Below are positions 21,695 through 63,667 of a DNA stretch of 64,000 bases, in pieces. Under the pieces are notes generated by a model that saw only the letters and a program-made list of their open reading frames with translations, did not search any database and was not told where the DNA came from. The DNA comes from Malacoraja senta (lineage: Eukaryota), in the NCBI GenBank assembly GCA_038087875.1, contig CM075991.1:11162001-11226000 (forward strand), given 5' to 3'. The position numbers and the translations under genes are program-made. Positions within the stretch are counted from its first letter, which is position 1, and each line of letters opens with the position of its first letter.

Positions 21695-23630
21695 CCACAT
21701 CTTTTAAAATTCCCCTTTTAAAATAGCTACAGAAAAATTTAAATACTTGGGAATCGAAATCACTAGAACATATCAAGGCATGTTTAAAGCAAACTTTGAT
21801 CCTTTACTTAATAAATTAAATACACTAATTAAATTTTGGAAAACGCTCCCAATGTCTTTAATAGGCCGAATAAATGCAATAAAAATGATCTTCTTACCAC
21901 AAATTTTATACCTATTTCAATCGATTCCTATATACCTACCAAAGAAGTTTTTTTTTAAACTGGATTCAGACATTACTAATTTTATATGGGACTATAAATC
22001 ACATAGATTACAAAGAACATACTTGAACAAAGCTAAAGTATTAGGGGGCTTAGCACTCCCTAACTTCATGTATTATTATTGGTCAGTAAATATTAAAAAT
22101 ATGATTCAACTGATGGACAACACTGCCCAGCAAGTGGACTGGATTGTAATGGAGAGAGAGGACTGCTGCTCTGGAAACATTGGAGCGATCCTCCTCTCAC
22201 CAATGAAACTGAATAACATAAATTATAACAAAAACCCAATTATACATAGTACAATCAGAACTTGCAAACAAATAAAACAAAATTTAAAATTAAGAAATTT
22301 ATCGCTTTTATCTCCCATAATTAATAACTCTTCATTTAATCCCTCTATTACAGACAAATCTTTCATACAATGGGATAGACTAGGAATTAAAACGTTCGGT
22401 GACTTGTACGAAACTGGAAAATTACTATCATTCCAACAATTACAAATAAAATATAAACTCGGAAATAATCAATATTTTAAATATTTTCAAATATGTGACT
22501 ATTTGAAAAAACATACAAAAGATCATCATAATACCTCAACAGATGTATTGGATGAAGCAATGCAGATAAAAGCTGAATCAGTAAACTTAATATAATATTT
22601 GTATAATATTATCTTAAATGTAGAAATACCATCTACGGAAGGTATTAGAAGAGACTGGGAACAAGAATTAGCTATTAAAATCTCAAAGGAAAGGTGGAAT
22701 GAACATTTATTAAACATGCATAAATGTTCGATTAATGTAAGACACACTTTAATACAATTTAAAATTTTACATAGATTATATTATTCCAAAACTAAAATCA
22801 ATAACATTTTCCCAAATGTATCATCAATTTGTGATAAATGTCAATCTCAAGAAGCTACTATAGCGCACTCATTTGTTTTCTGTACAAAAATTCAAAAATT
22901 TTGGATTGAAATTTTTGAAATCTTTACAAAATTATTTAAAATAAAACTGATACCCAAAGCAGAATGGATTATCTTCGGAACAACGGAAGATAGTCCAGAA
23001 CTAAATGTGTTCCAAAAGAAATTAATAGACTATGGGTTAATAACTGGAAAAAAGTTAATCCTAAAATTCTGGAAAAACGCTCCAATACCAACTATAAACA
23101 TGTGGATTCTAAATATGTTCGAAACATTACACCTAGAAGAGATAAGACTCCTCCTGGCAGGTAAACCAGATCACTTCCACCTGACGTGGTCTGCATTTAT
23201 AGAATTATTACAAGTATAGGGTGCAAATGTACTAAAAAAAACTGAGGTCAGGTAAGGGGGGATGAAAGCTGGAGAGTTGGTATGTCCCATTTGCGTGATG
23301 CTTACAAAAAAGTATTTGTTTTTCTCTTTTCCCTCTTTCTCTTTTTTCTTCTTTTTTAGGGTCTATTTCTTAACTCTTTTTGTTTTTAATTTATTTCTTA
23401 TAGGGTCTTTGTTTTTTGTTTTTTTGTTGTCACGTTTTTTACACTTTCACTTTTTTCCTTCACTTTCTTCTTTCTCTCAATCTCATCCTTTCCCTTTATT
23501 AGTGTAAAAAATAAACTGAGTACATTAATTGTAATAAGATATATGTGACGAGTACTAATGTAATTGGTTGTAATGTAATGTACTTCTAATAAATAAAATT
23601 AAAAAAAAATAATAAAAAAATAATTAAAAA
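21695..23630 (+). mobile_element. 5'-truncated L1-clade LINE with poly(A) tail and 15-bp TSD, antisense within GMCL1 intron 9
   Basis: ORF2 C-terminal half (KYLGIEIT...GRINAIKM..LP...LFQ; CDKC...H....C zinc knuckle); AATAAA and A-tail; ACAGTAGTGTGATCT at 21680-21694 and 23631-23645. Confidence 0.92.
21747..23219 (+). pseudogene. L1 ORF2 C-terminal fragment with a single in-frame stop (22593-22595)
   Basis: ORFs 21747..22595 and 22599..23219 are in the same frame. Confidence 0.85.
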
Positions 23631-34500: not shown

Positions 34501-35137
34501 GATATGCAGCTTGCTCTTAACCCCTTTAAATGAATCAATGAACTTGAAGCATTAAACCTCAAGAAACAAAATGTTGGAAAGACCCAATTTAAATTATTAC
34601 ATTTAGATTGGTTGGCCTGACATGTGGAGGTTTATGGCATGTGAGGTTGACCCTCAAGGTCAACAAATCAAAGCAGCAAAGGCGTATTAACAGACTGCAG
34701 ATCTAAATCTCCGACCGTTCCGGTTAAGTCACAAAAACAATCAAAGACTATAAATCAATGATGCTCTACATGCTCCACGTTCCAGAGTGGAAAGATGCAT
34801 TCCTTACTTATTATGTCAAAATCATCACTGGGACAACATCTAAATTTTGAACGTGCGCTATACGGACCATAAATCAAATGCAATACACCCATCAAACCAT
34901 CTTTCAGCATTCTGAATTTATTAAGAGAGATCCCAAGTCCATATTTTATGCTTTTGTACAGAATTGGGGGAAATCTGAAAAGGATTCACGTCATTTTCTT
35001 GCTTCTCCCTCTCCCTCTCCCTCTCCCCCTCTCTACATTGCACAATGCCATATAAATCTCAAAGTAATATAAAAGGACAGATCAACTATCGGGCCTTCTA
35101 TATTAGGCCTTGTAATGAAAACTAAATTAAGACATAC

Positions 35138-35234
35138 CCTCAGTGTCGATGTTCTGATCTGGAATCTCGAGTTCTATATAGTTCATATTTGACTCCTTCC
35201 ATGATCCACTGAACATACTTGAAAAGTAACCGGA
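35138..35234 (-). CDS. GMCL1: GMCL1 exon 3 (SGYFSSMFSGSWKESNMNYIELEIPDQNIDTE)
   Basis: BTB motif SGYFSSMFSGSWKES; cag/gtatg boundaries; 97 nt. Confidence 0.95.
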
Positions 35235-35459
35235 CTGTAAAGCATAAATCAACAAAACATTTAAGTGGTGACAATTCAAATAAGGTCTGCACTAATCTGC
35301 AGCAGTCTTTAAGCAGACACTTTTCAATTGTAGGATATAATGACATTTCTTCATGGATGTTTGTCTGGTGCAGCAAGCTTACTGGAGTGTCACTGAGATT
35401 ATTAATTTTGTTCTCATGGCTGGTAGAGTAGAGCTGGTTGAAAGCTTATACACTGAAGA

Positions 35460-39437: not shown

Positions 39438-41165
39438 CTGTAAAGCCAACAGAGCCCAGCATTAAGATAAAAGCACGACAATTAAGCATGTTCTAATGCT
39501 GCAGCGGCACACAAGTGGTTAGCACAGCTTTCAATATGCTTTCTTTGAGTTAGCGATAGTCACTGCCTCAAAAAGACTGCCAATATCATCAAGGACCCAC
39601 ACCATCCTGGCCACACACTTATCTCTCCGCTGCCATCAGGTAGAAGGTACAGGAGCCTGAAATCTGCAACATCCAAGTTCAGGAACAGCTTCTTCCCCAC
39701 AGCCATCAGACTATTAAACACAACTTCAAACAAACTGCCTATTGCACTTTTTCTGTTTATTTATGTATATATATATATGGTCTGTGGTATATAGACATGC
39801 TGATCTGTTCTGTATTTATGCCTACAATATTCTGTTGTGCTGCAGCAAGCAAGAATTTCATTGTCCCATCTGGGACACATGACAATAAACTCTCTTGACT
39901 TGGTCTTGACTTGAGGTTTGAAGATTAAGAAATGTCAGAAGATCAAGGGCATCGATTCAGCAGTAAATCCTCCGAGAGGGATATGGACCTTACGTGGGCA
40001 GGTGGGACTATTGTAGCTGGGACATGGCCAGTGTGGGCAAATTGGGCTGAAGGGCCTGTTTCCTCACTGTATTACTCTATGACTCTTGTCAAATTCACAT
40101 AATGACTGGGATCAAGACCATAATTCAAACCATGCAGCCCTACTTGAGCGCTTTGTGTCTTTTTTTTATAAACAAGCACCTGTAGTTCCTCAATATTAGT
40201 CCCCATCCAAGGTTCCCAATATATTTGAGCCCTGAGTTTTACTCTTACAAGGACATGTAGGCCTCAAATTATTATTTCTCCTCTGCATGCATCCCACTGT
40301 GCAGATGTAGACTTAACTGCAAGTAAATGCACCCAATTTACTTTGACCAGGTCCTTCCTGTTAAGGAAATTAATTCATGTTAACCAAACAATTCCCCCTC
40401 TGGCACTCCCTCCACCTGAAGTTATACATAATTTTATAACAGTGCAATACCTCCTCCCCTTTTACTGACAATTGGTCTCACTTGAAAATTCTATGCCCTG
40501 GATATCAGGTTGCCTGTCCTGCCCATCCTTCAATCATATCTCTGTGATGGCAACAATATCATTGACCCTTGAGTGATGAGTTCATCTAGTCATACTCCTT
40601 GCATTAAAATAGATGCTTTTCACTCACTTGCTTGTTCTCCCTACTGGACTTCCAAGCTATTTTTCCTACAGGTGACTGTGTCTCTCCTACTACTCTCAGC
40701 ACATTTCCATTGCCATCTCTGTTTAAACCCTTCGCAACAGTGCAGCCAAATATTAAACGGGAATCTGAGGGGTAACTTTTTCACACAAAGGATGGTGAGT
40801 GTATGGAGCAAGCTGCCAGAGGAGGTAGTTGAGGCTGGGACTATCCCAACGTTTAAGAAACAGGTAGACTTGGATAGGGCAGGTTTGGAGGGATATGGAC
40901 CAAACGCGGGAAGGTGAGACTAGTGTAGCTGGGACAAGTTGGGCTGAAGGGCTGGTTTCCACACTCTATGACTCAGTAAGGAGTTGGGAGGAACTGCAGA
41001 TGCTGGTTTACACCAAAGATAGACACAGTGTTGGGGTCACTCAGCTGGTCAGGCAGTATGCCTGGAGAGAAGTAATGAGTTCAAGTTCAAGTGAGTTTAT
41101 TGTCATGTGTCCCTGATAGGACAATTAAATACTTGCTTTGCTTCAGCACAACAGAACATAGTAGG

Positions 41166-41256
41166 TACACAAAAATGCTGGAGAAACTCAGCGGGTGCAG
41201 CAGCATCTATGGAGCGAAGGAAATAGGCAACGTTTCGGGCCGAAACCCTTCTTCAG
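41166..41256 (-). mobile_element. Minimal PLE 3'-end insertion, 10-bp TSD
   Basis: ACATAGTAGG at 41156-41165 and 41257-41266. Confidence 0.8.
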
Positions 41257-41329
41257 ACATAGTAGGCATTTACTACAAAACAGGTTTCAGGGTCGAGCCC
41301 TTTCTTCCGGGGGGGGGGGGGGGGGAGGA

Positions 41330-41770: not shown

Positions 41771-42183
41771 CCAGGCACCAACACAGACATGAGTGAAGCC
41801 GTCCACACCAACATGCTGGAGTAACTCAGTCCTGTCCAAAGTTCCTATATCTTTGGTCCTGTCCAAGGCAGCATCTCAGGAGAAAAGGTGTAGGAAGTGA
41901 ACTGCAGTTGCTGGTTTACACTGAAGATGTCAGACACAAAATGTGAAGGGAGGAACTGCAGACAACGGTTTAAACAGAAGATAGACACAAAATGCTGGAG
42001 TAACTCAGCGGGACAGGCAACATCTCAGGAGAAAAGGTGTAGGAAGGAACTGCAGTTGCTGGTTTACACTTCTTCCGTGTGGTGTTCACAGCTTAAAGTT
42101 GTTGGACAACTTGTTCTATTTGATGGTAGACAAAAATGCTGGAGAAACTCAGCTGGGTGCAGCAGCATCTATGGAGCGAAGGA

Positions 42184-42267
42184 GATAGGCAACGTTTCGG
42201 GCCGAATCCCTTCTTCAGACGGGATAGGCAACGTTTCGGGCCGAAACCCTTCTTCAGACCTGTCCCG
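42184..42267 (-). ncRNA. Two tandem minimal type I hammerhead motifs (39-nt period), PLE-derived
   Basis: CUGAAGA-A-GGG(UUUCGG/AUUCGG)CCC-GAAA-CGUU occurs twice; the first is closed by stem I CGGGACAGGU/GCCUAUCCCG. Confidence 0.65.
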
Positions 42268-42284
42268 TTTGTGCACGTCGAGTT

Positions 42285-42338
42285 GATTGCATTAGTCGAA
42301 ACAGGGCGGACCACGTGAAGGTTGCAATCTTCCACCCC
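42285..42338 (-). ncRNA. Minimal HDV-like self-cleaving ribozyme fold (54 nt)
   Basis: GGGGUGG-AA-GAUUGCA-ACC-UUCACGU-GGU-CCGCCCU-GUUUCGA-CUAA-UGCAAUC: P1 7 bp with a G1-U wobble, P2 7 bp, P3 3 bp, 7-nt L3, UUCG mini-P4, J4/2 CUAA. Confidence 0.8.
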
Positions 42339-42782
42339 CTGGTTTACACTGAAGATATCAGACACAAAATATGTAGGAAGGAACTGCAGGCGACGGTTTA
42401 AACAGAAGATAAGACACAAAATGCTGGAGTAACTCAGTGGGACAGGCAGCATCTCTGGAGAGAAGGAATGGGTGTCGTTTCGGGTCGAGACCCTTCAGAC
42501 ACAAAATGCTAGAGTAACTTCAACGGAACATGCAGCATCTCTGGAGAAAAGATGTGTGTAGCAAGGAACAGCAGATGCTGGTTTACACTGAAGATACACA
42601 AAATGCTGGAGTAACTCAGCGGGACAGGCAACGTCTCTGGAGAAAAGATGTAGCAAGGAACAGCAGATGCTGGTTTTCACCGAAGATGGACAAAATGCTG
42701 GAGTAACAGCAGGACAGAAAGCATCTCTGGAGAAAAGGAATGGGTGACGTTTTGGGTCGAAACCAGACAGAAACAAGGGAGA

Positions 42783-43620
42783 AGGTACACAAAAATGCTG
42801 GAGAAACTCAGCGGGTGCAGCAGCATCTATGGAGCGAAGGAAACAGGCAACGTTTCGGGCCGAAACCCTTCTTCAGACTGATAGGGGGTGGGGAGAAGAA
42901 AGGAAAAAAGGCGGAGGAGGAGCCCGAGGGCTGGGGGATGGGAGGAGACAACCAGAGGGCTGATGAAGGGGAGGGGACAGCAAGGGCTAGCAGAATTGGG
43001 AGAATTCAATGTTCAAGCCCCCAGGATGTAGACTGCCCAAGCGGAATATGAGGTGCATTTCCTCCAATTTCCGGTGTTGCTCGCTGTGGCCATGGAGGAG
43101 ACCCAGGACAGAGAGGTCAGATACGGAATGGGAAGGGGAGTTGAAGTGCTGAGCCACCGGGAGGTCAGGTTGGTTATTGCGGACCGACCGGAGGTGTTCG
43201 GCGAAACGATCACCAAGCCTCCGCTTGGTCTCACCGACGTAGATCAGCTGGCATCTAGAGCAGCGGATGCAATAGATGAGGTTGGAGGAGATGCAGGTGA
43301 ACCTCTGACGCACCTGGAACGACTGCTTAGGTCCTTGAATGGAGTCGAGGGGGGAGGTGAAGGGACAAGTGTTGCATCTCTTGCGGTTGCAAGGGAAAGT
43401 ACCCGGGGAGGGGGTGGTACGGGAGGGAAGGGAAGAATTGACAAGGGAGTTACGGATGGAGCGGTCTTTGCGGAAGGCAGACATGGGGGGAGATGGGAAG
43501 ATGTGGCGAGTGGTGGGGTCACGTTGGAGGTGGCGAAACTGACGGAGGATCACTTGTTGTATGTGACGGCTGGTGGGGTGAAAGGTGAGGACTAGGGGGA
43601 CTCTGCCCTATCATAATGAT
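42783..43620 (-). mobile_element. Second, shorter copy of the same PLE (GIY-YIG + 3' end), 14-bp TSD
   Basis: ORF 42987..43553 is nearly identical to the C-terminus of 61554..63326; AGAAACAAGGGAGA at 42769-42782 and 43621-43634. Confidence 0.9.
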
Positions 43621-43634
43621 AGAAACAAGGGAGA

Positions 43635-45490
43635 GGGAGTCTAGAAATATGGAAGGGTAAGGTGTGAAAACGACAGATCAAGGCAGATAACGATAAGGAA
43701 ATGTAGAATGGTTCATTGTTGGCTGAGGAGAAGGTGACAAGGCGGCATACAATCAGTAAAATTCTTCAGGACAGTGAAACTAGTCGGAGAACTATGGTCA
43801 GGGAGCGATGGAGAGAGGGAAAGCAAGAGTTACTTGAAATTAGATAAATCAAAATTCATGCTGCTAGGTTGTAAGCTGCCCAAGCGAAATTCAAGGTGCT
43901 GTTCCTCCTATTTGTGTTTGACCTCACTCTGACAGTATGGGACTGGATGGAGGAGTTACGCAACTGGGAGATCACGTAGGTCGAGGCGGACTGAGTGGAG
44001 GTGTTCAGCGAAGCAATCGCAGAGCTTGCGTTTGGTCCCAACGATATAGAGTATAGGGAGGTTGCACGGCAGTCGGGTCATGACCCGTGACCCGTACTGT
44101 TGCCACGCAACGCCAACTGGAGTACAAGCGATGAACTGCAGGTAAGCACTTACCATTGTTTCCAGTGTAGCGGGCCCGTTACAAACTGCCGAAATGATCA
44201 ATTTTTGTGCTGTAAATGATTATGGAAATTGGGGTAAGCGTGAGAGACATTTATCCTACTTCAGAATTCCAAAAGTGAGGAGAAATGACGGTAGAGAGAA
44301 GCGGCAGCTGAAGGGACAACAACAGCTCAAGTGGTTGGCGAACATTGGCCGTGCAGATAACAAGATTGAAAATATTGGCAATTATCGCCTTTGCTCACTG
44401 CATTTCATCAACAGTAAGGCATTATTTGTGTTTTTTCTTGATTCCTTTGGTATCTAAAAAGTTTCAGAAGTGATAAATCTGGCTGTAAAATTTTAAAATG
44501 GCCCATGGTTCTCAAGTGGGTTTTTACATACAAAAAGAAAACGCTTCTGAAGCAAAATTTATCATCGCAAACCATACGTGGGTTTTGAATTACATTTTAC
44601 TCAGATGCAAGCCAAGGAATGGCATAATTGTTAGCTGTTAATTGGACATAATCAACCTCAGCAAATTGACAATATCTTTGAAAGGGAGTAGTGGGTGTTT
44701 AAGCTGTCAGGACATTTTATTATTTGCCAAAATATACATCTCAATAGCATAATGATAGAAATCTTACTTTTCCACACACCACTCGTAAGTCTAGAGATTT
44801 TTTAAAATAATAATAAATTTAGATTCAGAGGCGTTTTCTTTTTGCATGTAAAAACCCACTTCGGAACTTAGATTTGCGATGTAAAAATTTTACATCCAGA
44901 TTTATCACTTCTGAAACTTTTTAGATACCAAAGGAATCAAGAAAAAACACAAATAATGCCTTACTGTTGATGAAATGCAGTCAGCAAATGCGATAATTCC
45001 AAACATTTTCAATCTTGATATCTGTACGGCCAATGTTCGCCAACCACTTTAGCTGTTGTTGTTCCTTCAGCTCTCGCTTCTCTCTACCATAATTTCTCCT
45101 CACTTTTGAAATTCTGAAGTAGGATAAATGTCTCTCGTGCTTACCCCGATTTCCATAATTATGTACAGCGCAAAAAAATGACCATCTCGGCGTTTTTTAA
45201 TGGGTAAGAAAGAACGCGTTTCGTGTATCAACAGTATATGCCGAAAACTGCCATGTACTTCACATGGATTGAGCTGGTCCGTGCGTCATGCCCTTTGACC
45301 TTATGTGCAACCCCCCTATTGGAGTCCAGACCTGGAAAAGCAGATGCAGTTGGAGAAGGTGCAAGCGAACCTTTGTCTCACCTCAAAGGACTGTCGGGGT
45401 CCTTGGACAAAGTCGAGGGAGGAGGTATAGGGACAGGTGTTGCATCTCTTGCGGTTGCAGAGGAAAGTACCTGGGAGGGGGGCAAGGAGG
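43635..45490 (-). mobile_element. Older degenerate PLE fragment, interrupted by the THAP element at 44055-45317
   Basis: Frameshifted GIY-YIG remnants (IVGTKRKLCDCFAEHLHSVR) on one side of the insertion and further PLE-like sequence on the other. Confidence 0.7.
44055..45317. mobile_element. Non-autonomous DNA transposon, AT TSD, THAP exon in each inverted arm (ISL2EU/Harbinger-related)
   Basis: Termini AGGGAGGTTGCAC / GTGCAACCCCCCT flanked by AT; ORF 44194..44457 is THAP-like (C..FRIPK..W..I.R..CSLHF), mirrored at ~44960-45185. Confidence 0.8.
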
Positions 45491-46211
45491 GACAAATTTG
45501 GGGGTAATTAGTACTAAAAGGGGCCACAAAATGGCTTGGCGAGTCAGAAAATTCCGAAGCTTTTTATACCTATATTTAAAACACAAGTGTAACCAAAGAA
45601 AAGGTAGTACAACTCAAGGATAAAGGGGGAAATTTGTGCTTGGAATCTGAGGATGTAGGCGAGATACTAAACAAGTACTTTGCATTTGTTTTAACCAAGG
45701 AGCAAGACATGGAAGACAGTGTGGAGAAAACTAATATGCAAGGATAGTTTGAGATTAGGAAAGGGATGGTGTGGAGCTCCATCGCCAAGAGATGGTGTGA
45801 AGAGCATTAAGGTGGATGAATCCCCCAGACCGGATGAGATTTATCCCAGGTTATTGAGAAAGGCAAGTGTGCTGTTGCACTAGGGGGGAGGGTTGAATGT
45901 AACAGGAGAATACACAGATAATGGCATAATCCTTTACTGCATTGATGTGCAGAAGGATCATGGAGTCCAAGTTTATAGCTCACTGAAAGTGGCAGCACCA
46001 GTAGATGGTGTAATGAGAAGGCATATGGTATGCTTGTCTTCATTGCGAGAGGCATTGTGCATAAGAGTCAGGAAGTCATGATGCAGCTTTATAAGACTTG
46101 GATTGCAGCACCTTGCAGCCTGAACACTCAGGCTGGCATAAGAAGTTTAAGTGTTTCTCTTGGAATAAGATTGCAATGTGTCACAGCATCAGTATAGATA
46201 AAATGGAATGT

Positions 46212-46217
46212 TTTATT
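46212..46217 (-). promoter_or_regulatory. Candidate ANXA4 polyadenylation signal AATAAA
   Basis: AATAAA at the end of a ~900-nt AT-rich, repeat-free stretch after the stop, just before the TE cluster begins. Confidence 0.5.
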
Positions 46218-47121
46218 TAAATGTTAACAGCCTTGAATTACAACATTGCTGCAATGGTTCATTGCTTCCAGTTTTCAAAGTGGTACTCTTGCAAAATGTA
46301 AATATTTACAGGTGACATTAACAAATTACACAGCAAGAGATGCTCATCCAAGTGAATACAACTGATTTGTGTATAATCTATTTGACAAATGTTGTTACAT
46401 GCATCTTGTACACTTTCATTACTCAATCGTACATTCTTAGCAATTTGCAATTGTTCCCAATCAACAACATTACAGCTGAGGAAATTCCTGACTGCAGTCA
46501 TAGTTAAGGGGCAAACAGCTCATTTGCTGTATGAAACTATTTTAAGTCTACAGATCAGGGTAAAAAATACAGCAGGGCTGTCGTTGTAACCCCTTCACTA
46601 TTTCTTGCATGACATTGAATGATGTATTATTTCCTTGGACATTAAGTACAGGATGCACTTAATTTATCTTTAAGTTTATAGTTTCAAATCACACTTTACA
46701 ATTGTTCTTCATCTTTAATTCACATTGTAGTACAGTACACATATTACTTTATCCCTTCTTGGATTGAGTCCCACATTGGAAGGTCATTACAAACCAGAAA
46801 TGGCAAGCCCCAGATTTCAAAGTTCAGATCTGCACTGAAACTTTAAGGAATAGCAATTTACTAACTATTGTCAAGTGTATGTTCAATTTTACAGTAAGAT
46901 CTTGGAATTGATTTGTGCATTGTGCTTCTGCTTAGCATTTTATATTAGCTTTGCATCTTTAAAGGCATTGATTAGAATAATGTATTTCAAGATCATAGCG
47001 AAGGCAAAAAAGTTAAGGCTTCATTGAGCGTATAATTAAAGCATGTCACTAAGTGAGCACCGCACTCATTTTACAGGATCTTCAATTCATTCCATCTTGA
47101 AATGACACGGAGCTATTACAT

Positions 47122-47178
47122 TTATTCACTGCCACACAGTTGGAGGAGGATCTTCTTGTAATCTCCAGAACAATCGCC
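47122..47178 (-). CDS. ANXA4: ANXA4 last coding exon (GDCSGDYKKILLQLCGSE*)
   Basis: GDxSGDYxKxLLxLCG annexin C-terminus; cag acceptor; TAA stop. Confidence 0.94.
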   Translation of the reverse strand, partial: GDCSGDYKKILLQLCGSE

Positions 47179-48829
47179 CTGGAATCAAAATTATTACATG
47201 TTAAATTATACAAGTTTTAAAAGAGAATGTCATAGCACATCTAACCATAATTGAAGCATTTATGATTCGATTACTGTAATTATTTTTTGAACCCAACCCA
47301 TTTAGCAGTCTGCCCACTAGTCTATAACAAAATATTAACTTGAAAGATATGTAATTTTTTCCAGTACCATTCCAACTAACAGTCTTCCAAAATACTTCAG
47401 AATTTTTTTAGTGTAGTATTTGTTGTAAAAGGACATGTGGCAGCCAATATATGTAAAGCCAGCTATAACAACCAGATACATAATTATCAACGCCCTGGGT
47501 TAGGGATGTTGATTTAGAATTACATATTGGCTGGAAACCAGCAATATTACCATGATTGTTAAAATAGAACTTGAAATTGAATTAGCTGTGCTTTGAATAT
47601 AACAGATTTCACTTCTCATATGTAAATTAAATGTCTTAAAGGGAGTGCGATCTTACTTGATATCACTAGCTACAAGGTCAAAGTTATCGGGTAATAGAAT
47701 GAAAGTTTATTGAAAATCTCATCTAGAATTTGGCCCAGGACTGCGTAGTCCAGTTTCTGGCACTTGGTGGCACAAGCATACTGCAGACCAGCCATAGTAG
47801 CAGGCCATATTACACAGAGCACACCCACATTGCACTGTACCAAATTCGGTGGGTGGGTTTGGTGTATGGTCTGGGTGCAGGGGGGGGGGGGGGGGGTAAA
47901 GTATTAAACAAAATCTGCTCTTTAAAAATAATAATTTTCTCAAACAAGCTTACTAGTGATTGTGATTAGGCAAACGTGAAATCTAATAGTTTATTGTATG
48001 CTTTTGTGTCTGAATCATACCAGATGAGATTTTAAACAAGATCTTGCACTTTGAATTACTCAGATGGAATTCATGGCCTAGGGCTCAATTTTAATGAGAA
48101 CAGCAAAACAGAAAAGTGTGGTTCCCAGGGTTATTAGAGACGCTCAAACAAACATGATCCTAGTTGCTATGTTGTGAAGTCCTACTGCAGGTAACAAGAA
48201 TAAATGGCATATTAATACTTGGAAGGAAATGTGGAGTTTAGCTAAAAAATGCATTTAATTTAACACCTGCACTAGAAGTGTCAGTATAGATTATGTGCTC
48301 CAAAATGTGGTTTCAATCACAAGGCTATAATTAAAACAGCTTTTTTCAAACATTGTACGTATTGTTAACATGGCAGAGAATGTAATAACTCGAAAACAAT
48401 CATCTATAACACCCAGCATGATTATAAGGTGTTAGTGCTTAACTGGAAACTACTTTAAGATCCTGAGCACACAGTGGCTGAAATAGCAATATCTCCAAGT
48501 CTGTGCAGCATGAAAGGAATAAATACCAAGCTATTTAAACAATGCATCTCAAGAGATGTGCAGTGGACTGAACAAAAAATGTACTTTTGATCGAGTAGAC
48601 AACTCAAGCACTTGCAATATTAAAGTGAAATGTTCTTTACAACAACTTGAATTATGATAGGGTCCATTTTTACAACTGAAACATCATAAGCTGTAAAATT
48701 TTACCTGTTAACATGGTAAAGCAAATGTATTGGAACTGCTGATTCAACCTTGGACAAATATCTATCACAGGTCATCTCTTGAAGGTAAATGGAATTTAGC
48801 CCATTATGGCACGAGGGATGGAGTGCATC

Positions 48830-49435
48830 ACTAAAGTGTCAACACAAGTAGATAGAGTGGTAAAGAAGGTTTATAGTCAGCTTGCTTTCATAGGTCAGGG
48901 CATTTAGAGTTAGGAAGTCACAATGTAGCTGTATAGGTTAGGCTGCATTTGGAGTATTGTGTACAGTTCTGGTAGCCCCATTACAGGAAGGACATGAAGG
49001 CTTTAGAGGGGTGCAGAGGAGGTTTACCAGAATTATGCCTGGATTTGGTGATATTAGCTCCAGGGAGAGGTCGGGCAGACTTGGATTGTTTTCTCTAGAA
49101 TGCCATAGGATATGAGGAGACCTGATAGAAGTATAGAAATTCTGAGAGGCGTAGAAAGGTTAGACACAAAATCTTTTTCAGAGGGGCAAAGTTTAAAGCA
49201 GGGCAAGTTTTCTTTTTAAACGGAGGGTAGGTGGCGAGTGCACAGCTGAATGTTGTGGTTGAAGCAGATACATTAGTGGCATTTAAAAGACTTTTGGATA
49301 GGCATTTGGATATGTAAGGAATGGAGGGATATGGGTTATGTGCAGGTAGATAAGTGATGGTCTTGGTATCATGTTCACCATATACATTATGAGTTAAAGG
49401 GCCTGTTATTGGGCTGTACTGTTCCATGTTCTCTA
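48830..49435 (+). mobile_element. CR1-clade LINE 3' end
   Basis: LEYCVQFW.PHYRKD..ALEGVQRRFTR motif. Confidence 0.7.
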
Positions 49436-49829
49436 TTTGAAGATAAACTTGCATCTTTTACTCCAACCTGCTTCCTAAACATTTCAATATCCTGACAAAA
49501 CAGCAGAAACTATTCTACAAAGTAATTACATTTGCTGTATTGGTGTTTTCTATAAAACCTATTTAGTAAATTCAACCTTACTAGCCACATAATATTTTAT
49601 TCTGCCTCCATTTTAAAGCAAGACAATGAGAGCTAATTCCCATTGTATGAATGAACTATAGTCACGTGTATCTACAAGATATAAAATAACCAAGTCATAG
49701 GGAATAAAAAGGCACACTCAAAATATCCAGTCATGCCATCAAAAAAGTATATTTCTTAAAATCGATCAATAATTAAGATTGTCACCAATCCTTTCATGCT
49801 TCAATCTCCAATTATCATTGTGCTCTTAC

Positions 49830-49952
49830 CTTGATAAAGGAATGCAATGACTTTCCATACATTCTTTGAAACTCATCTTTAATGTCCAGCATGTCAATTT
49901 CACACCGAGATACCATGACCCTAATCAAGGCATCATCATCTGTACCAGCTCC
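49830..49952 (-). CDS. ANXA4: ANXA4 exon ([41 protein letters not shown]), repeat 4
   Basis: Canonical annexin repeat 4; tag/gtaag boundaries; 123 nt. Confidence 0.94.
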
Positions 49953-50039
49953 CTATTACCAAGAGAACATAATGATTAGGCATTTACTTTCAATCCCTAT
50001 GGAGAAAAAATTATTTTAGACCATCTTATTTTAGACCAT

Positions 50040-50324
50040 GTCCCCCAACACTTCATCCAATACTAGCACCACCTAGCGTGCTTCCGGTTGTGGGAACGGA
50101 GAGAGGGAGCAGCGTGAAAGTGGCGCGAGTAGTGGGCCCGTCCCTGGTGCGCTGTGTGGGGCCGGGGGCTCCACAGCTTGTGAAAACCCGCTTGTTTAAT
50201 CCACCCAACACAGCATTTCTTCCCTCCCGGGCTTGCGTTGTACCCCCATCACTCGGTTATAGTGGACTATCGGCAATGACGGCCACTACCCCCTCCAGTG
50301 ATCTGTTATAGCGAGGGTTTGCTG
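50040..50324. mobile_element. Tigger/pogo-like DNA transposon end fragment
   Basis: Ends GTTATAGCGAGGGTTTGCTG|TA, similar to the reverse complement of the 7573 terminus. Confidence 0.45.
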
Positions 50325-52046
50325 TAGAGTCTTTTCTTTGACTGGATAGCAAGCAACAAAAAGCTTTTAACTGTGACAATATAATAAACTAAACCTTATT
50401 GTACTTTGGTATCATTGATGCTGATTGGAGCAGGTACTGAACCTCATTTTCTGAAGATAGACAGAATGCTGGAGTAACTCTGGAGCATCTCTGGAGAGAA
50501 GGAATGGGTGGCGTTTTGGGTCAAGACCCTTCTTCAAACTAGTTTCCTGAAGTCAGTAACAAGTTTGCAGTTTACACCATTGTGTGCCAGATCATGAACA
50601 ATCCCATACATCTTAACCCTATGGATCAACCTACCATGGGGGACTTTATCAAACACACTACTACACTCCACGTATGCAACATCTACTATTCTACCCTCAT
50701 TGATTACCATTGGCAGCTCAAAAAACTCACATCTTTAAATAATGCAATGTGCAAACCTCTGATACAAAGTGATTGGAAATCACAGTCTATAAAGTACTTT
50801 AAGAATATAAATATGTCTATATAAATGTGTCTAACTCCACACTGCAGCAGTTAATTAAATCAACTATTATTGCTGAAATTATGATGTTCCAACAAGACAA
50901 AAAAAGCTTGGCAAAAAGTGTTACCATAATGCCTCATTTCTTATTGTAAATCATTTAAAGTTGAATAGATAGTTTAGGTCAAGCGGTGTAAAATTATTTC
51001 TCAAGGAAGTAGCAACTAATTATTTTTGTGGATCAGCACTGGCTCATAGTTCTCATTCCAGAGAAAACACCAGCCGACCCGTTGCAAATTATGCCCTATT
51101 TTGTGAAAAGTATTGCCGTCAGCTACAACAGACAAAACGTTGCGACTACCAGATAGTTGATTGCCTTTTCATTTACATCTCATTACATGCAATTCCTGAT
51201 CTGGGGCATATATGATCCTCACACCAGCAAAAAATCTACTGAGTTTTTTTATTTAATTGCTCGGTCCTCTGAATACAACAAAAAATGTATTAAAATTTAG
51301 TGCTGCACTGCCAACTTGAAGAGGAGTTTGCTAGCTTTCATCTAACTGAATGAAGATCATTTAAGTGTTGTAAATTGAACAAAACCAAACCAAGTTAACA
51401 ATTTATGCAAACAACCATGATAGTTTAATGCTTCGCAGGCCGGGTAGCATCTGTGGAGAGGGAACAAATTAATTTTGCAGTTTGGTTACCTTTCATTGGA
51501 ATTGGGGAAAAAGGTTAAATAAAACAGATGCAGTAAAAGTGCTGGTGGTGAGATGTGGTTACTCATTGGAAGAGACGATCAGTGTAAGGTGGCTATGAAC
51601 CAAAGGGGAAATGATAGAAGGCAAAATGTTGCTGGGAATGGGACAAGAAAATTACATACGATACAATAAAACTCAAGATAAATGAAACATGAAATTAAAG
51701 TGACGAGTGGAAAGTCCAGGATTGGGGATGTTCAGGTTGGGGGGGGGGGGGGGGGGGGGGAAGGAAGGAAGAGGGCAACAGAAGAGAAAATAAAAGAAAC
51801 AACCTAAAATTATTGAAGTCGGTGTTGAGTCAAAATTTGATTTTGATTTGAGCACTCGATGACAAACTATGTGTGGTCTCAGAACTGGATTGAGGTAGAG
51901 ATTTAATCTAAAAATCACCCGAGATCACCCGAATGCAGCACTTGCTCAGCCACCTACACCGGTTATGAGGAATACATCATAAAACCTCTACAGGTGTTAT
52001 TAGGACAGGCAGCGTAGAATAGGATTTGCATTTTAAGTTAATTTAC

Positions 52047-52105
52047 CTTCATGGACTTGTACAGCCTCTCAGCAAAGTAAGCAGGTTGGTTGTTCATGTT
52101 CTTAA
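52047..52105 (-). CDS. ANXA4: ANXA4 exon (VKNMNNQPAYFAERLYKSMK)
   Basis: AYFAERLYKSMK motif; cag/gtaaa boundaries; 59 nt, after an 81-nt intron. Confidence 0.93.
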
Positions 52106-52186
52106 CTGGAAGAGAGGATTAGAAGTTAAATATTCAGGAGGAAAGTTAGTGTTGGAAAGTGGATACAAAGATAGGACAGAGCTCAC

Positions 52187-52282
52187 CAATTGCCAATAAA
52201 GCATCTTCAAAGCTGCCAGACATCTCTCCCTTAATGCTGGCCTCAATGTCCTTCTTAGAAATCTTCTTATACTCTTCAAATA
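52187..52282 (-). CDS. ANXA4: ANXA4 exon (VFEEYKKISKKDIEASIKGEMSGSFEDALLAI)
   Basis: SGSFEDALLAI matches ANXA4; cag/gtgag boundaries; 96 nt. Confidence 0.93.
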
Positions 52283-53404
52283 CTGTTTGGGGGATTAAAA
52301 AAAAGTTGATAATGTGAGCAAAATTAATAGAATATTCCTAAAAGCCAAGCTTTGTCCTGTCCCCACCTCACTTCTTGCTTTCACTACAATCAATCTGAAG
52401 GGTCCCGACCCAAAAGATCACCTACCCATGTTCTCCAGAGATGCTGCCTGATCCGCTGAGTTACTCAGCAGTGTCATTTTTTATTTAGTTTATTATTATT
52501 GTCATGTGTACTGAGACAACTATGAGACGCTTGAACACTACACAACATAACCTCAATACCTGTGAACTTTTATGGACCGAAAGTAGACACAAAATGCCAG
52601 AGTAGCTCAGCGGGTCAGGCAGCATCTCCGGAGAGAAGGAATGGGTGATGTTTTGGGTAGAGACCCTTCTTCAGACTGATTGTAGTGAAAGCTAGAAGGG
52701 AGGTGGGAACAGGACAAATGCTTGGCATTTCGGACCGTTCTCTATGGACCGAATTCAGGTTGCCTTATGGATTTTGTTTTTTGCATTCTTATAGTTATAA
52801 AATTATTAGATTTTTAAAAAAAACCAACATATTATCTGTGTGTATGTGTTTCCAGGCCTGTTATGGTGCAGCAAGGAACAATTTCATTGTGTAGGAAGGA
52901 ATTGCAGATGCTGGTTTACACCAAAGATGGACACAAAATGCTGGAGGTCTGGCAGCATCTCTGGAGAAAAGGAATAGGTGATGTTTTGTGTCGAGACCCT
53001 TCTCCAGACTGGGAGTCAGGGGATAGGGAAACTAGTGGTATGAAAAGGTTCCGAATGAATCAGAGCCGGCACTGACCTTCACCAATTTCATTGTACAAAA
53101 CACAATTAAACACCGTTAACTTTAACTCTTAATATACTATTTGCTGTGAGCCTAGACATATATATACTCCATTCCAACTCATTAAGTTGTAATAGTTAGA
53201 CCATCAATTTTGTTGCCCATTTATACACTTTATTTTAAATGTTTCCAGCCATCATTTCATCTTATATATACACTTAAGTATCCAAAAGAAACTAGAAGTA
53301 TAAAAAAAAGTTACAAATGTACAAGGTGAAGTAGTGTGGGATACGCCTCGAGCACAAATGCCAGCATATGTTGGCTACTGTTGCTGCTTCAGCATTGAGT
53401 GTAA

Positions 53405-53926
53405 AGGCTCTGTCCCACGGGTTTGCGGTCATTGGCGGTGAAGCGCGGCGTCGCCGGAAGAGGGGACCGCACGTCAACCACGAGAGCGCTGCACGGATGT
53501 TGCGCGGGGGCCGAGTGATCTCCGTACGGCCGGTTCCACGAGCTTGCGGCGTCGGGTGATGACGACATCACGCAACGCGACGCGGGGGCTGTGGCGGCGG
53601 TAGTGGTGATCGCGGCGCTGTGGCGGCGGCCATGCCGCACACGTGCCTCACTGGCGGCGGCTGTGGCGGTGAAAGTTCGACTCACGGCGCTTGTGCCGCA
53701 CTGGCGGCGGCTGTGGCGGTGCCCGTGTCGCACTCGTGCCTCACTGGTGGCGGCTGTGCAGTAGGAAAATATTTTTCGACATTGTTGTTTTTTTGTGAGC
53801 ACCGTGCAGTGTTGGGACCAACGCCGCACGGCCCCGGCAGTGTGCGTTTGACCGAACCCGCGGTCCACGAGCGGTAGATACTTCCCGTTTCACAGCCAAT
53901 GACCGCAAACACGCGAGACAGGCCTT
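53405..53926. mobile_element. GC-rich PIF/Harbinger-like MITE with TAA TSD
   Basis: Imperfect ~32-40 bp TIRs (AGGCTCTGTCCCACGGGTTTGCGGTCATTGGC / GCCAATGACCGCAAACACGCGAGACAGGCCTT) flanked by TAA; internal GGCGGCGGCTGTGGCGG repeats. Confidence 0.75.
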
Positions 53927-54613
53927 TAAGTAGTTTTATTGTTATTCATTGTATTTGAAGTGCTGAACAGTCACTTAAAGATGTGAAAGTCAGCCTTTCA
54001 GCAGAAGGCATAGAAAATGATACATTTCCTTCTGACAGCACAGACATTATCTAAACAAAAGATCAAATCAGTATTGCTGGGGATGCCAAGGTTAACTTAC
54101 AGCAGTTCATTTCACACCAGCCTAACTGGTTGCTCCATTGGATGACGAGGTCTATGCACTAGTTATACAGCGTGGAAACGGGCCCTTCGGCCCAACTTGC
54201 CCACACTGACCAACACGTCCCATCTACATTAGTCCCACCTGCCTGCGTTTGGTCCATATCCCTCTAAACCTATCCTATCCATGTACCTGTCTGAATGTTT
54301 TGTAAACATTGCGATAGAACCTGCCTCAACTACCTATTCCAGATGCTTGCTCCATACACCCACCGCCTTGTGTAAAAAAAGTTACCCCTCATTTTCTATT
54401 GAATCTTATCCATGGGGTGTTGACCCCAATTTGTGATCATTTGTCTGGAGTGGGTTGACTGTATAACTCGTCTTTTTGATGCACACAGCAAGTATCTAGT
54501 TTTCTGAATTGCAGAATTGACTGTGAAGCTTAAAAAGTGATATTCTCTCGACAAAATACCCAAATGGAAGGCGAAACTGCCAGTGTTCATTGCTTGGATC
54601 AGAGAACTCTTAC

Positions 54614-54707
54614 CTCTCTTCAAATGCTGTCGGTTCCTGATACAGAGAATGCCCAAGAATGCAACTTCATCTGTCCCCCATTGTTTCTCGCCAGCATCAT
54701 ACAATGT
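54614..54707 (-). CDS. ANXA4: ANXA4 exon (TLYDAGEKQWGTDEVAFLGILCIRNRQHLKR), repeat 3
   Basis: AGEKxWGTDE motif; tag/gtaag boundaries; 94 nt. Confidence 0.93.
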
Positions 54708-55086
54708 CTAGAACACAAGAGTAAGACAGAACATGATAGTTAAAAACATTTGGAAATAGTTTTCAGCAGATACCGACTGACTGCGGACAACATCCAAAGT
54801 CAGAAAGCAACAGATTGGACCCTTGCGAATCAGTTCAAAATTTGTGCATGATAATCACACTGAATCCCCTACTTTCAGATGTCTGAATTAACAATACAGC
54901 CCGACTGTCTCAGCCTGTAGCTGGCAAGATACTTTGCATATTAAAAATTTGACAGCATGATTTAGTGAAACTGCTGCAGTGCAAGGAACATGCCCGAATG
55001 ATAATGGCAATTGCCTGCACTGGAAAACTGTATTAAAGCTTCTAAAGGAGCAAGAGGAAATAATGAAGGATCTGACCATTTTCCAA

Positions 55087-56206
55087 GGTACACAAAAGTG
55101 CCGGAGAAACTCAGCGGGTGCAGCAGCATCTATAGGGGGGTTGCACGCAAGGTCACCGGGTCATAGGGCTTGACGCACGGAGCCGCTCAATCCATCTGGA
55201 AGACATCCGTCACTTCCGGTATATGTTATTAATACAAGAAACGCGTACTTTCCTACCTGTTAAAAACCGCCAAAATGTTGAATTTTTTCGCTGTAAAAGA
55301 TTGTGGAAGTCGGGGTAAGTGTGAGAGACATGTACCCAACTTCAGAATTCCAAAAGTGAAGCGAAATGAAGGTAAAGAGAAGCGAGAGCTGAAGGGACAA
55401 CAACAGCTAAAGTGCTTGGTGAACATTGGCCGTGCAGATATCGGAATTGAAAATATCGGGATTTATCGCGTTTGTTCGCTGCATTTCATTAACGGTATGG
55501 CATTATTTGTTTTTGTTTTTATTTCTTTGGTATCTAAAAAGTCTCAGAAGTGGTAAATCTGGTTGTAAATTTTGTATGTAAAAACCCACGAGAACCAGGG
55601 GCGATTTTAAAATTTTACAGCCAGATTTATCCCTTCTGAAACATTTTAGATGCCAAAGGAATCAAGAAAAAACACAAATAATGCCTTGGTTGATGAAATG
55701 CAGTGAGCAAACGGCCAATGTTCGCCAAGCACTCTGGCTGTTGTTGTTCCTTTCAGCTCTCGCTTCAATCTACCTTCATTTCTCCTCACTTTTTGAATTC
55801 TGAAGTTGGCTAAATGTCTCTCACGCTTATCCCGATTTCCATAATTATTTACAGCGCAAAAATTGACCATTTCGGCGGGTTTTAACGGGCCCGCTACGCA
55901 GGAAACAATGGTAAGTGCCTGCCTGCAGTTCATCGCGTGTAATCCATTTGGCGTAGCGTAGCAACAGTACGGGTCATGGGGTCGTGACCCGACTGCCGTG
56001 AAACCTCCCCATGGAGCGAAGGAGATAGGCAACGTTTTGGGCCGAAACCCTTCTTCAGACTGATAGGGGGTGGGGGGAGGCGGGGAGAAGAAAGGAAAAA
56101 GGAGGAGGAGCCCGAGGGCCGAGTGAGAGGTAGGAAGGGGAGGAGACAGCAAGAGTTAACGGAATTGTGAGAATTCAATGTTCATGCCACCAAAATTCAA
56201 TGTTCA
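55087..56206 (-). mobile_element. PLE 3' fragment with 14-bp TSD, split by the THAP element 55134-56010
   Basis: TGACCATTTTCCAA at 55073-55086 and 56207-56220; sequence matches the 3' end of the 61315 element. Confidence 0.8.
55134..56010. mobile_element. Second copy of the THAP double-arm element, opposite orientation, AT TSD
   Basis: Inserted into CATCT-AT-GGAGCG, duplicating AT; THAP ORFs at 55275..55556(+) and within 55646..56152(-). Confidence 0.8.
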
Positions 56207-59530: not shown

Positions 59531-61412
59531 CTAAAAATAAGATTCAAATCATTAACTAATTAAAAATAGACACCAAAGAAAGCAAAGCCCAAAGACTCGA
59601 TATCTCAAGAGAGATAGAACCATTGTTCAGGCCAATCTAACACATACTGAATCAAGCCTTTAAATTTTTTAATTCAAGTATTCAAATTCTTCTATGGCCC
59701 TCTTTAAGGTCACTAGGATTCTTTGGAAAAGGTGCATAAGAGGTTTACCAAAAAATGCCTGAATTAGAGGGTGTTAACTACAGAGAGATGGTGGACATAC
59801 ATCTCCCTGTAACATTTTCTCTGAAATGCCAGATGTCATGGGGAGACCTGGTAGAAGTATATAAAATGAGGCATTGATAGGGTAGACAGTCACAACCTTT
59901 TTCCCAGGATGTAAATGCTTAAATTCTAGTGGGCATATCATCAAGGCGAGAGGGCCAAACTTTAAAGGAGACGTGCGGGTCAAGTTCTAAACATTTATAC
60001 AGAGGGTGGCGAGTGCCTGGAAAGTGCTGCCAAATATCATAGTGGCATTTAAGAGACTTTTGGAAGGAAAATGGATTGGACGGAAATGCTTGTACATGGA
60101 AGGAAGTGCTCCCAGATACGAGTTGGTATTGGCACAGTGTTCGGCACAGACATGGAATGAAGGGCCCGTTCTTGTGCTGCACTGTTCTATGTTCCAAGAT
60201 TAGGTTTATACTGCTAACCACCAGCTCTCAATACGACTTCTTGCGAAAATGGAGGGAGAACATAATACAGTCAGATATTCAAGCACCCAAAACTGAAAGT
60301 GATGGCCCCTGCTGTAACGCCTACTGCAAGGCAGGAGAGGCAACTGAGAGAGAATAGGTAGGTGGTGGAATGGGAAAGGAAAAGCAGATATAGTGATAGC
60401 CTAGTGTTTTCCAGGCAGAGAATATAGACGTGTTTCCTTTGATTGGTGGCTGGGACCCTGACCTGCTGTAAACCTGTCAACTTGGAGAGGCATTTCCTTT
60501 GTGAACTTGCTCTTTCTCTATTCTTGTCTCTGCCCTTTTCAAAGGCATGTTCTGTTTGCATTATTAAACAAGTATTGATATAATTTGTTTCCTAATGCAA
60601 TTAAAAAAACTCTAATTCTTCTGTTAACTATCAGTCTGAAGGAGGATCTGTCTAAAACGTAACATATTCCTTTTCTCCAGAGATGCTGCCTGACCCCTGC
60701 AGAACATCAAACAATATGGAGATTGTTCTACCAAAGAAGGGGCTTTGTTTCACCGTATCAAGTTTCAGCCGAGAACGCAGAGCAGAAAGGAGGAGGAATG
60801 CGGGCAATTTGTAAACCAGCTGTCAAAGCAAAGGCGAATTTGTCTCAACAGAGACTGGAGCTGAATGGATGAGGAGTGTGGGAGAGATGAAAAACAGCAA
60901 TTAGTTTTCATAAAAGTATATATACCCTGCATGATACATGTCCTACATGATGTGAAGTGCTCGACTGAAGGCAAGTGCCGAGGCATGGGCTATGGAGGCT
61001 TTGGTGAAGAAACTGAACAAAGTGTGACAGAAAGAGAGGGCAAGGTCTTTTTAAACTTTCATCTTGGTGCAGTCGGGATTGCAGTTAGGGCAGTGGTGTG
61101 CCCCTCATACAGCATGTGGGAGACCCAGGAATTTTCCAGTGTTACTGGTGACTATATGACTTGGAAACATGTCCACCTGCAGCTCCTGACGGACCACTCA
61201 AAGGACCACTCTGGGATGATTGAACATCATAGATAGGGTTTTAGCGTGGATCACACCTTAAGTGCAGGCAGAAAGTAGATGTAATTAGGGCCATAGGGAA
61301 ATCTTTAATGTTAAAGAAGGAACTGCAGATGCTGGAAAATCGAAGGTACACAAAAATGCTGGAGAAACTCAGCGGGTGCAGCAGCATCTATGGAGCGAAG
61401 GAAATAGGTAAC

Positions 61413-61440
61413 GTTTCGGGCCGAAACCCTTCTTCAGACT
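61413..61440 (-). ncRNA. Hammerhead core in the PLE 3' pseudo-LTR
   Basis: CUGAAGAAGGGUUUCGGCCCGAAAC followed by GUUACC; PLEs are known to carry minimal hammerheads with a palindromic stem III. Confidence 0.55.
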
Positions 61441-61553
61441 GATAGGGGGTGGGGAGAAGAAAGGAAAAAAGGAAAAGGAGGAGGAGGAGCCCGAGGGTTG
61501 GGGGAGGGGAGGAGACAACCAGATGGCTGATGAAGGGGAGGGGACAGCCAGGG

Positions 61554-63326
61554 CTAGCAGAATTGGGAGAATTCAACGTTCAGGCCACCAGGGTGTAGAC
61601 TGCCCAAGCGGAATATGAGGTGCATTTCCTCCAATTTACGGTGTTGCTCGCTGTGGCCATGGAGGAGACCCAGGACAGAGAGGTCAGATACGGAATGGGA
61701 GGGGGAGTTGAAGTGCTGAGCCACCGGGAGTTCAGGTTGGTTATTGCGGACCGACCGGAGGTGTTCGGCGAAACGATCGCCAAGCCTCCGCTTGGTCTCA
61801 CCGATGTAGATCAGCTGGCATCTAGAGCAGCGAATGCAATAGATGAGGTTGGAGGAGATGCAGGTGAACCTCTGTCGCACCTGGAACGACTGCTTGGGTC
61901 CTGGAATGGAGTGGAGGGGGGAAGTGAAGGGACAAGTGTTGCATCTCTTGCGGTTGCAAGGGAAAGTACCAGGGGAGGGGGTGGTATGGGAGGGAAGGGA
62001 AGAATTGACAAGGGAGTTACGGAGGGAGCGGTCTTTGCGGAAGGCAGACATAGGGGGAGATGGGAAGATGTGGCGAGTGGTGGGGTCACGTTGGAGGTGG
62101 CGAAACTGACGGAGGATCACTTGTTGTATGTGACGGCTGGTGGGGTGAAAGGTGAGGACTAGGGGGACTCTGCCTTTGTTGTGAGTGGGGGGATGGGGAG
62201 AGAGAGCAGTGTTGCGGGGTATGGCAGAGACCCTGGTGCGAGCCTCATCTATGGTGGAGGAGGGGAACCCCCGTTCCCTGAAGAATGAGGACATTTCAGA
62301 TGCCCTGGTGTGGAACGCCTCATCCTGGGAGCAGATGCGGCGTAGACGGAGGAATTGGGAGTGGGGGATGGAGTCCTTACAGGAAGCAGGGTGGGAAGAA
62401 GTGTAGTCCAGATAGCCATGGGAGTCGGTAGGTTTGTAGTGGATGTCGGTAAGGAGTCTATCACCTGCGATGGAGATAGTGAGGTCAAGGAATGGTAGGG
62501 AAGTGTCGGAAATGGTCCAGGTGTATTTAAGTGCCGGATGGAAGTTGGTGGTGAAGCGGATGAAGTCAGTCAGTTGTGTGTGGGTGCAGGATGTGGCACC
62601 AAAACAATCATCGATGTAGCGGAGGTAGAGGTCGGGGATGGGGCCCTGGTACGCATTGAACAGGGATTGTTCTACGTACCCGACAAAGAGGCAGGCGTAG
62701 CTGGGGCCCATGCGTGTGCCCATAGCTACGCCTTGTATTTGGAGGAAATGGGAGGAGTCGAATGAAAAGTTATTAAGTGTAAGTACCAGCTCCGCTAGGC
62801 GGAGGAGGGTGTCAGTGGCCGGGTATAGATTGCTTCTCCGGTCGAGGAAAAAACGGAGGGCTTTGAGACCATCCTGGTGGGGGATGGAGGTGTACAGTGA
62901 CTGGACGTCCATGGTGAAGATGAGGGGGTGAGGGCCTAGAGAGTGGAATGCGCGGAGATGACGGAGAGTGTCTGAGGTGTCTTGAACATAGGTGGGGAGG
63001 GATTTAACCAAGGGGGATAGTATGGAGTCGAGGTAGGTGGAGATGAGTTCGGTGGGGCAAGAACAGGCAGAGACAATGGGTCTACCGGGACAGTCAGGTT
63101 TGTGGATTTTGGGGAGAAGGTAAAAGCGGGCTGTGCGGGGCTGGGGAACGATGAGGTTGGAGGCTCGTTCGGGCAGGGCGTGGGAGTGGATGAAGTTGGT
63201 GATGGTGCTGGAGATGGTGGCCTGGTGCTCGTCAGTGGGGTCATGGTCCAGGGGTAAGTAGGAAGAGGTGTCCGAGAGTTGGCGCGTGGCCTCAGCTTTG
63301 TAGAGGTCGACGCGCCAGACTACCAC
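61554..63326 (-). CDS. PLE reverse transcriptase + GIY-YIG endonuclease (N-terminally truncated)
   Basis: 590 open codons with DVQSLYTSI, GVAMGTRMGPSYA, RYIDD, a CNRKRCNTC Zn-linker and LIY...YIGETKR..RFAEH; the frame continues upstream to KPADKGGAV (DKG motif). Confidence 0.92.
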   Translation of the reverse strand: MVVWRVDLYKAEATRQLSDTSSYLPLDHDPTDEHQATISSTITNFIHSHALPERASNLIVPQPRTARFYLLPKIHKPDCPGRPIVSACSCPTELISTYLDSILSPLVKSLPTYVQDTSDTLRHLRAFHSLGPHPLIFTMDVQSLYTSIPHQDGLKALRFFLDRRSNLYPATDTLLRLAELVLTLNNFSFDSSHFLQIQGVAMGTRMGPSYACLFVGYVEQSLFNAYQGPIPDLYLRYIDDCFGATSCTHTQLTDFIRFTTNFHPALKYTWTISDTSLPFLDLTISIAGDRLLTDIHYKPTDSHGYLDYTSSHPASCKDSIPHSQFLRLRRICSQDEAFHTRASEMSSFFRERGFPSSTIDEARTRVSAIPRNTALSPHPPTHNKGRVPLVLTFHPTSRHIQQVILRQFRHLQRDPTTRHIFPSPPMSAFRKDRSLRNSLVNSSLPSHTTPSPGTFPCNRKRCNTCPFTSPLHSIPGPKQSFQVRQRFTCISSNLIYCIRCSRCQLIYIGETKRRLGDRFAEHLRSVRNNQPELPVAQHFNSPSHSVSDLSVLGLLHGHSEQHRKLEEMHLIFRLGSLHPGGLNVEFSQFC

Positions 63327-63667
63327 GGCACCTCCCTTGTCGGCGGGTTTGATGTCGGCGGGAAATCTTTAATGTTAAGAATGAACATTTGTCACAGATT
63401 TCTGTTAATAGATAAATATTATACTGTGATTTTCCATTAATTTTGAGATTTGTTCCTTCCCTAAAAACTCGTGCATCAGTTGCAATACATTTTCTTTGCA
63501 TCGTTGTTGTACTTGTGTGAAAGAGTGGTATAAAAATGTAAGTTGTCCATCAATTAAATTCAGTGTGGATATGCCTTTAATTACAGCTCAACCCCAATTG
63601 TGTGGTTTTAACAGGAGACCGTTTAAAATGACATTTTAGGAGCATTTTTACATGGAAATTGTAGTAC

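Follow-up and report, generated by a model that had tools for sequence, protein, structure and literature searches.

The window, that is, the whole 64-kb stretch of DNA that was analysed, is vertebrate DNA, probably of a skate or ray to judge by its repeats, and contains exons of two genes on the minus strand, an annexin gene (exons 63758-47125) and GMCL1. The exon at 35130-35291 has GMCL1 as its sole PDB match. For one annexin exon ANXA4 was the best single-repeat-set match, for another it ranked second, slightly behind ANXA3, and a doubled ANXA6 outscored ANXA4 for both annexin exons tested. The annexin that adjoins GMCL1 is presumably ANXA4 by synteny, and the PDB matches together with the place beside GMCL1 make ANXA4 the best name for this gene. 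Its stop codon lies near 47125. The likely GMCL1 start codon is at 41483, with a CCAAT box (41708) and two GC boxes (41636, 41742) nearby.

Thirty-six PLE-end pieces were found in the 64 kb, grouped in 23 clusters, and 27 of them lie on the minus (gene-sense) strand, a count in which the array pieces are not independent. Nine form an array at 41809-42878 (minus strand), directly upstream of the GMCL1 promoter, where a ~144-bp unit of a second PLE subfamily is repeated; this array looks like a hot spot of repeated insertion and is the target of the insertion described below. A 5'-truncated PLE with a GIY-YIG remnant (42781-43607, minus strand) is 96% identical to the copy at 61342-63368 (minus strand), a young-looking element in an annexin intron with an open 604-aa RT and GIY-YIG frame (Pfam matches to RVT_1 and GIY-YIG just below the cut-off, Atlas score 0.97). 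Solo PLE ends (5205, 41256, 42257, 42876 and 61437, all on the minus strand) start 2-6 bases before the hammerhead CUGA, and those at 5205 and 41256 are flanked by short direct repeats. GMCL1 intron 1 has, just within its boundary and in sense orientation, the solo end at 41164-41258 (minus strand), whose hammerhead core is intact and which is flanked by a direct repeat of ~10 bp. In longer PLE copies the same start point is preceded by a pyrimidine tract with a terminal CAG, resembling a splice acceptor, and hundreds of contigs in the comparison below break at 42259 (among the loose ends listed). In Drosophila virilis Penelope the intron ends at helix I, according to the available part of PMC4209133. 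A splice- or ribozyme-linked truncation point of PLEs is possible. Elsewhere in the window, two consecutive frames of 295 and 207 aa (21708-23219, plus strand) resemble the C-terminal part of an L1/Tx1-type LINE; the first of them had no Pfam match.

Inside the array, the unit at 42071-42338 consists, in minus-strand order, of an HDV-like fold, two hammerhead cores, a PLE 3' end and a tail with two hairpins, and it is flanked by a perfect 12-bp target-site duplication (TSD), with identical 12-mers at 42059-42070 (plus strand; the last two bases also extend the GAA-type tail) and at 42339-42350 (plus strand). This is the anatomy given in the preliminary description, which our analysis confirmed. 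The 12-mer is also present at 41911 and 42578 in the surrounding array. Removal of the insert and one TSD copy rebuilt an empty site that aligns almost without gaps to the neighbouring ~144-bp array unit, and 42071-42338 is therefore a true insertion with a TSD. The possibility that the repeated 12-mers reflect mere array periodicity was rejected, because the empty site restores an intact array unit. Two ORFs that cross the unit (41894-42286, plus strand; 42093-42494, minus strand) were rejected as genes and are probably read-throughs of repeat pieces. The unit as a whole folds unremarkably compared with shuffles (z -0.32, in a model without pseudoknots).

The head of the unit (42338-42285, minus strand, 54 nt) matches a complete HDV-like nested double pseudoknot without P4. 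With positions and helices numbered by what we take to be the HDV ribozyme scheme, P1 has 7/7 pairs (with a G1-U wobble), P2 7/7, P3 3/3 and P1.1 a single pair (G), connected by J1/2 (AA), a 7-nt L3, a short loop where P4 would be and J4/2 (CUAA, 42295-42292). The predicted cut lies directly 5' of G42338, with C42295 in J4/2 as the putative catalytic base. A descriptor of this fold, composed after the motif had been seen, matched 42285-42338 as its sole locus in the window and had one match in 40 dinucleotide shuffles. The Rfam match of the motif is weak (RF02682, 16 bits, E 2.9, gathering score 44), and there were no Rfam matches at gathering level across the 64-kb window. Folding of the head alone gave a z of -0.04 in a model that does not include pseudoknots, which makes the low pairing probabilities obtained for P2 uninformative. 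Among the per-site contig variants listed, C>T at 42307 (16-24% of depth) changes a P1 U-G pair to U-A and is also a CpG transition. Judged by its structure and the sharp 5' boundary of the family, the HDV-like motif probably cleaves every transcript that runs into it.

The middle of the unit is derived from a PLE. Positions 42125-42220 (minus strand) are a PLE 3' end, a pLTR piece with a minimal hammerhead core (42218-42191), and match the PLE ends at 41164, 42781 and 61342 with 92.5-95.8% identity; against 61342-61446, the end of the RT and GIY-YIG element, identity is 92.5% over 107 nt. Positions 42221-42259 (minus strand) are a 39-nt tandem duplicate with a second core (42257-42230), identical to 42182-42220 at 37/39 positions. 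The CUGAAGA..GAAAC-GUU cores, which start at 42257 and 42218, are intact in both units, with helix II of core 42218-42191 weakened by an A-G mismatch. They predict cuts after 42230 and 42191, as had been proposed before. The earlier delimitation of the hammerhead block as 42125-42267 holds for its start, whereas its end has to be moved: the PLE block is 42125-42259, positions 42260-42264 are junction bases between the PLE piece and the surrounding element, and 42265-42284 (minus strand) are the remainder of that element's 5' part downstream of the ribozyme, as indicated by contig joints from 42124 to 42265, 42267 or 42268. A minority G is present at 42184 and 42223, that is, in both tandem units, which points to local duplication of the hammerhead core. 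Where the tandem units meet, contig depth falls by a factor of more than 100, and there are hints of further short duplications. Among the joints listed for other PLE copies, some lead from 42258-42259 back into 42224-42227 and one connects opposite strands at 42206/42259, hinting at recurrent short duplications and inversions of the core in the PLE family.

At the other side of the duplicate, the junction bases 42260-42264 with their flanks are an inverted copy of 42219-42229, within which 42260-42268 is an inverted near-copy of 42219-42227. This junction provides the first hammerhead with a helix I of 10/11 pairs, whereas the window's five other hammerhead cores have two consecutive helix I pairs only. 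The fold of the first hammerhead with the long helix I (z -1.95, 12/200 shuffles as good) is suggestive only. Partial tandems, inverted 5' pieces and TSD-less microhomology junctions are known from PLE insertions, as described in the available parts of PMC8557442 and PMC3846280, and fold-back synthesis is thus a sufficient explanation of 42260-42268. Alternatively, the junction may be a length variant of the surrounding element. The monomeric hammerheads lack a stable helix III. A dimeric fold is possible, with a 4-bp shared helix III and an 8-pair outer helix I, at -13.7 to -15.0 kcal/mol in a model without tertiary contacts, compared with -30.0 kcal/mol for the best fold, and with a probability of 0.02 for its helix III pairs. 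PLE minimal hammerheads were previously reported not to cleave in vitro as monomers and to cleave at a low level as dimers (PMC4209133, in its available part). The hammerhead pair modelled here probably cuts poorly.

For comparison with other copies, contigs from four of 23 sequencing runs, representing four organisms (X2, X3, X4 and X6), were aligned to 42040-42370 at 85% likeness. About 45,000-56,000 contigs were aligned per run, and they show presence but neither absence nor copy number; the RNA runs X15-X20 (word shares 0.10-0.31) were left out. The best share of words is 0.62, so the four runs probably come from species or individuals other than the source of the window. A word share of 0.62 is the value expected of separate parts with a chance overlap of 4 bases, the expectation for separate parts being 0.49-0.75 for overlaps of 0-8 bases. 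Eleven of the 15 joints listed (303 others) skip 138-147 nt, from 42121-42124 to 42263-42272. Such block-skipping joints occur in at least 51, 32, 71 and 19 contigs of X2, X3, X4 and X6, respectively, at least 173 in total. Three of the four runs have as their deepest joint one in which 42124 and 42265 are separated by three letters, so that the element measures ~131 bp, and the commonest uninterrupted form carries three other letters where 42260-42264 stand in the window. Among the loose ends listed (1297 others besides), those behind 42124 (75, 70, 71 and 71 contigs) and those before 42265 (25, 50 and 61 contigs in three runs) lead on into this element's other half. Behind 42338, 289, 256, 479 and 435 contigs (among those listed) enter unrelated flanks (agreement 0.34-0.35), and the summed depth falls about 300-fold across 42339/42340. 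The family thus begins at the first G of the ribozyme.

The head and the tail (42071-42124, minus strand; two predicted hairpins and a GAAGA end) therefore belong to one retroposon, hereafter the host element, since in contigs of all four organisms the tail is high-copy and joined to the head. The tail hairpins alone do not fold significantly (z -1.09). The host is a non-coding retroposon of ~131 bp with a ribozyme head and a hairpin tail, multi-copy with defined ends and a TSD, and is built like a bipartite non-autonomous LINE. No second copy of head or tail was found within the 64-kb window, and no promoter of its own was seen in the sequence. An autonomous partner LINE was found neither in the window nor by scans for the head pattern in metagenome and viral contigs. 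A Pol III or tRNA-derived SINE was rejected, as there is no tRNA head and no tRNA-, 5S- or 7SL-type Rfam match; the label of an HDV-headed SINE used in the preliminary description is thus apt for an HDV-headed short element but loose with respect to SINE.

We consider it highly probable that the host retroposon inserted into the PLE-end array and that a PLE fragment subsequently inserted into this host copy, once. The host element would probably be transcribed inside read-through or intronic RNA of a gene, and its HDV-like ribozyme would free the element RNA at its first base. The RT and endonuclease of an autonomous LINE (RTE, Ingi or Vingi type) may then bind the tail, and target-primed reverse transcription would insert the element, leaving the 12-bp TSD. 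By analogy with NARTc, SIDER1 and the R2 SIDEs, as described in the available parts of PMC4035085, PMC6765202 and PMC5786205, such a mobilisation route is plausible. The guest would be a 5'-truncated PLE end starting at the hammerhead, like the other solo PLE ends in the window, which entered the middle of the host copy without a TSD and whose hammerhead core was then duplicated locally. With 36 PLE-end pieces in 23 clusters per 64 kb, the probability that a 131-bp target is struck would be at most about 5%. The two nested mobile elements would be unrelated, and no function for the organism is needed to explain the locus. Two features count against nesting: the PLE piece lacks a TSD, unlike the solo PLE ends at 5205 and 41256, and the junction provides a long helix I that gives the impression of a tailored feature, even if PLEs often have inverted 5' junctions.

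Of the two origins offered in the preliminary description, a PLE fragment within an HDV-headed short element is borne out by the copies in which head joins tail without the block, present in all four runs (probably not the window's own genome). The other, a chimeric multi-ribozyme retroelement that moves as a unit, either as a small lineage-private family or after nesting elsewhere and a single copying to this place, appears improbable. Both of its mobilisation ends, the ribozyme head and the tail, are intact, all parts have the same orientation and the TSD encloses everything, and the four organisms compared are probably not the source of the window, which leaves room for a private family. 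However, with block-skipping contigs in every run, neither the tail/PLE nor the PLE/head junction is bridged by any of the 32 pieces listed (207,008 others) and none spans 42040-42370; these are the longest pieces, among which short junction-crossing contigs would not appear, so other composites may exist. Moreover, hammerheads active inside the element would sever its head from its tail at the RNA level, which would oppose its own copying. That the composite is mobile in this lineage and that the junction-made helix I renders the double hammerhead active seems very improbable to us; if so, cleavage of its transcript would yield a set of defined fragments able to circularise or to trim read-through RNA.

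A role in gene expression was also weighed. The unit has the same sense as ANXA4 and GMCL1 and lies 360-630 bp upstream of the CCAAT box, in agreement with the placement first proposed for it, and it is consequently outside mRNA started at the GMCL1 promoter. Cutting of ANXA4-GMCL1 read-through RNA by the cassette is possible but unsupported. It would be most surprising if the organism kept the three ribozymes to destroy ANXA4 read-through before the GMCL1 promoter. The strand shared with both genes, the short distance to the CCAAT box and the intact HDV core would suit such a role, but the orientation says little when 27 of the 36 PLE-end pieces are on that strand, and five AATAAA/ATTAAA hexamers already lie 2.4-4.8 kb upstream on it (44716-47121). 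The unfavourable energy and helix III probability of the dimeric hammerhead fold and the poor in vitro cleavage reported for PLE minimal hammerheads (available part of PMC4209133) also argue against co-option, and nothing indicates that the four organisms compared have the insertion.

The host resembles NARTc/RIME, SIDER1 (L1Tc/ingi), the R2 SIDEs and the RTE and Vingi derivatives in being short and non-coding with an HDV-like 5' end, a structured tail that ends in short repeats, a TSD, many copies and differing upstream flanks, as far as these are described in the available parts of the sources (PMC5786205, PMC4035085, PMC6765202). In contrast, it has only ~131 bp and a 54-nt P4-less ribozyme, compared with at least 77 nt in trypanosomatids (same sources). 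The available part of PMC5786205 gives bipartite elements as known only from RTE, Ingi, Vingi and R2. Unlike these bipartite systems, the host occurs in a vertebrate and is known here without a parent LINE. Its head is similar to the minimal HDV-like and theta ribozymes, with a P4-less nested double pseudoknot and a catalytic C in J4/2 (PMC10879173). According to the available part of that paper, nearly 99% of minimal and theta sequences are from Caudoviricetes phages, the eukaryotes sampled being human, mouse and protists. Unlike those ribozymes, as described there, the host motif heads an abundant vertebrate retroposon and has no tRNA link.

The hammerhead cores resemble the PLE pLTR type I minimal hammerheads of PMC4209133 (available part) in the extra base between 9 and 10.1, the G10.1-C11.1 pair, the palindromic 15.2-16.2, the absence of loop 3 and the location at the end of an RT and GIY-YIG element. 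They differ from them in the doubling of the core at 39-nt spacing and in the long helix I from the insertion junction. With its tandem PLE pLTR-derived hammerheads the block also resembles animal non-LTR retrozymes (bioRxiv 10.64898/2026.07.22.740005, available part), but its two 39-nt units are below the range of 51-972 bp given there for retrozymes. Unlike the free-standing retrozymes of that source, the block is embedded in another element and shows no sign of independent spread.

The literature searched, with Repbase/Dfam and subscription papers outside its scope, contained no description of the host family or of an HDV-plus-hammerhead retroposon. As far as this literature goes, the host family is of a known kind but new, and its notable part is the P4-less ribozyme. 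Repbase or Dfam may already list the family. We regard the chances as evenly balanced that the host, in its form without the block, is an abundant vertebrate retroposon not described before and that the P4-less HDV-like ribozyme at its head is active. PLE ends occur every few kilobases, so nesting is to be expected and the composite is of little importance in itself. Of greater importance is the host family, since minimal P4-less HDV-like ribozymes have so far been reported almost only from phages, at least in the available parts of the sources. It would give these ribozymes a clear eukaryotic role, the setting of the 5' end of a mobile RNA, and would provide a large number of natural variants on which covariation and activity could be tested. 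It would also place many potential cut sites in introns and read-through RNA.
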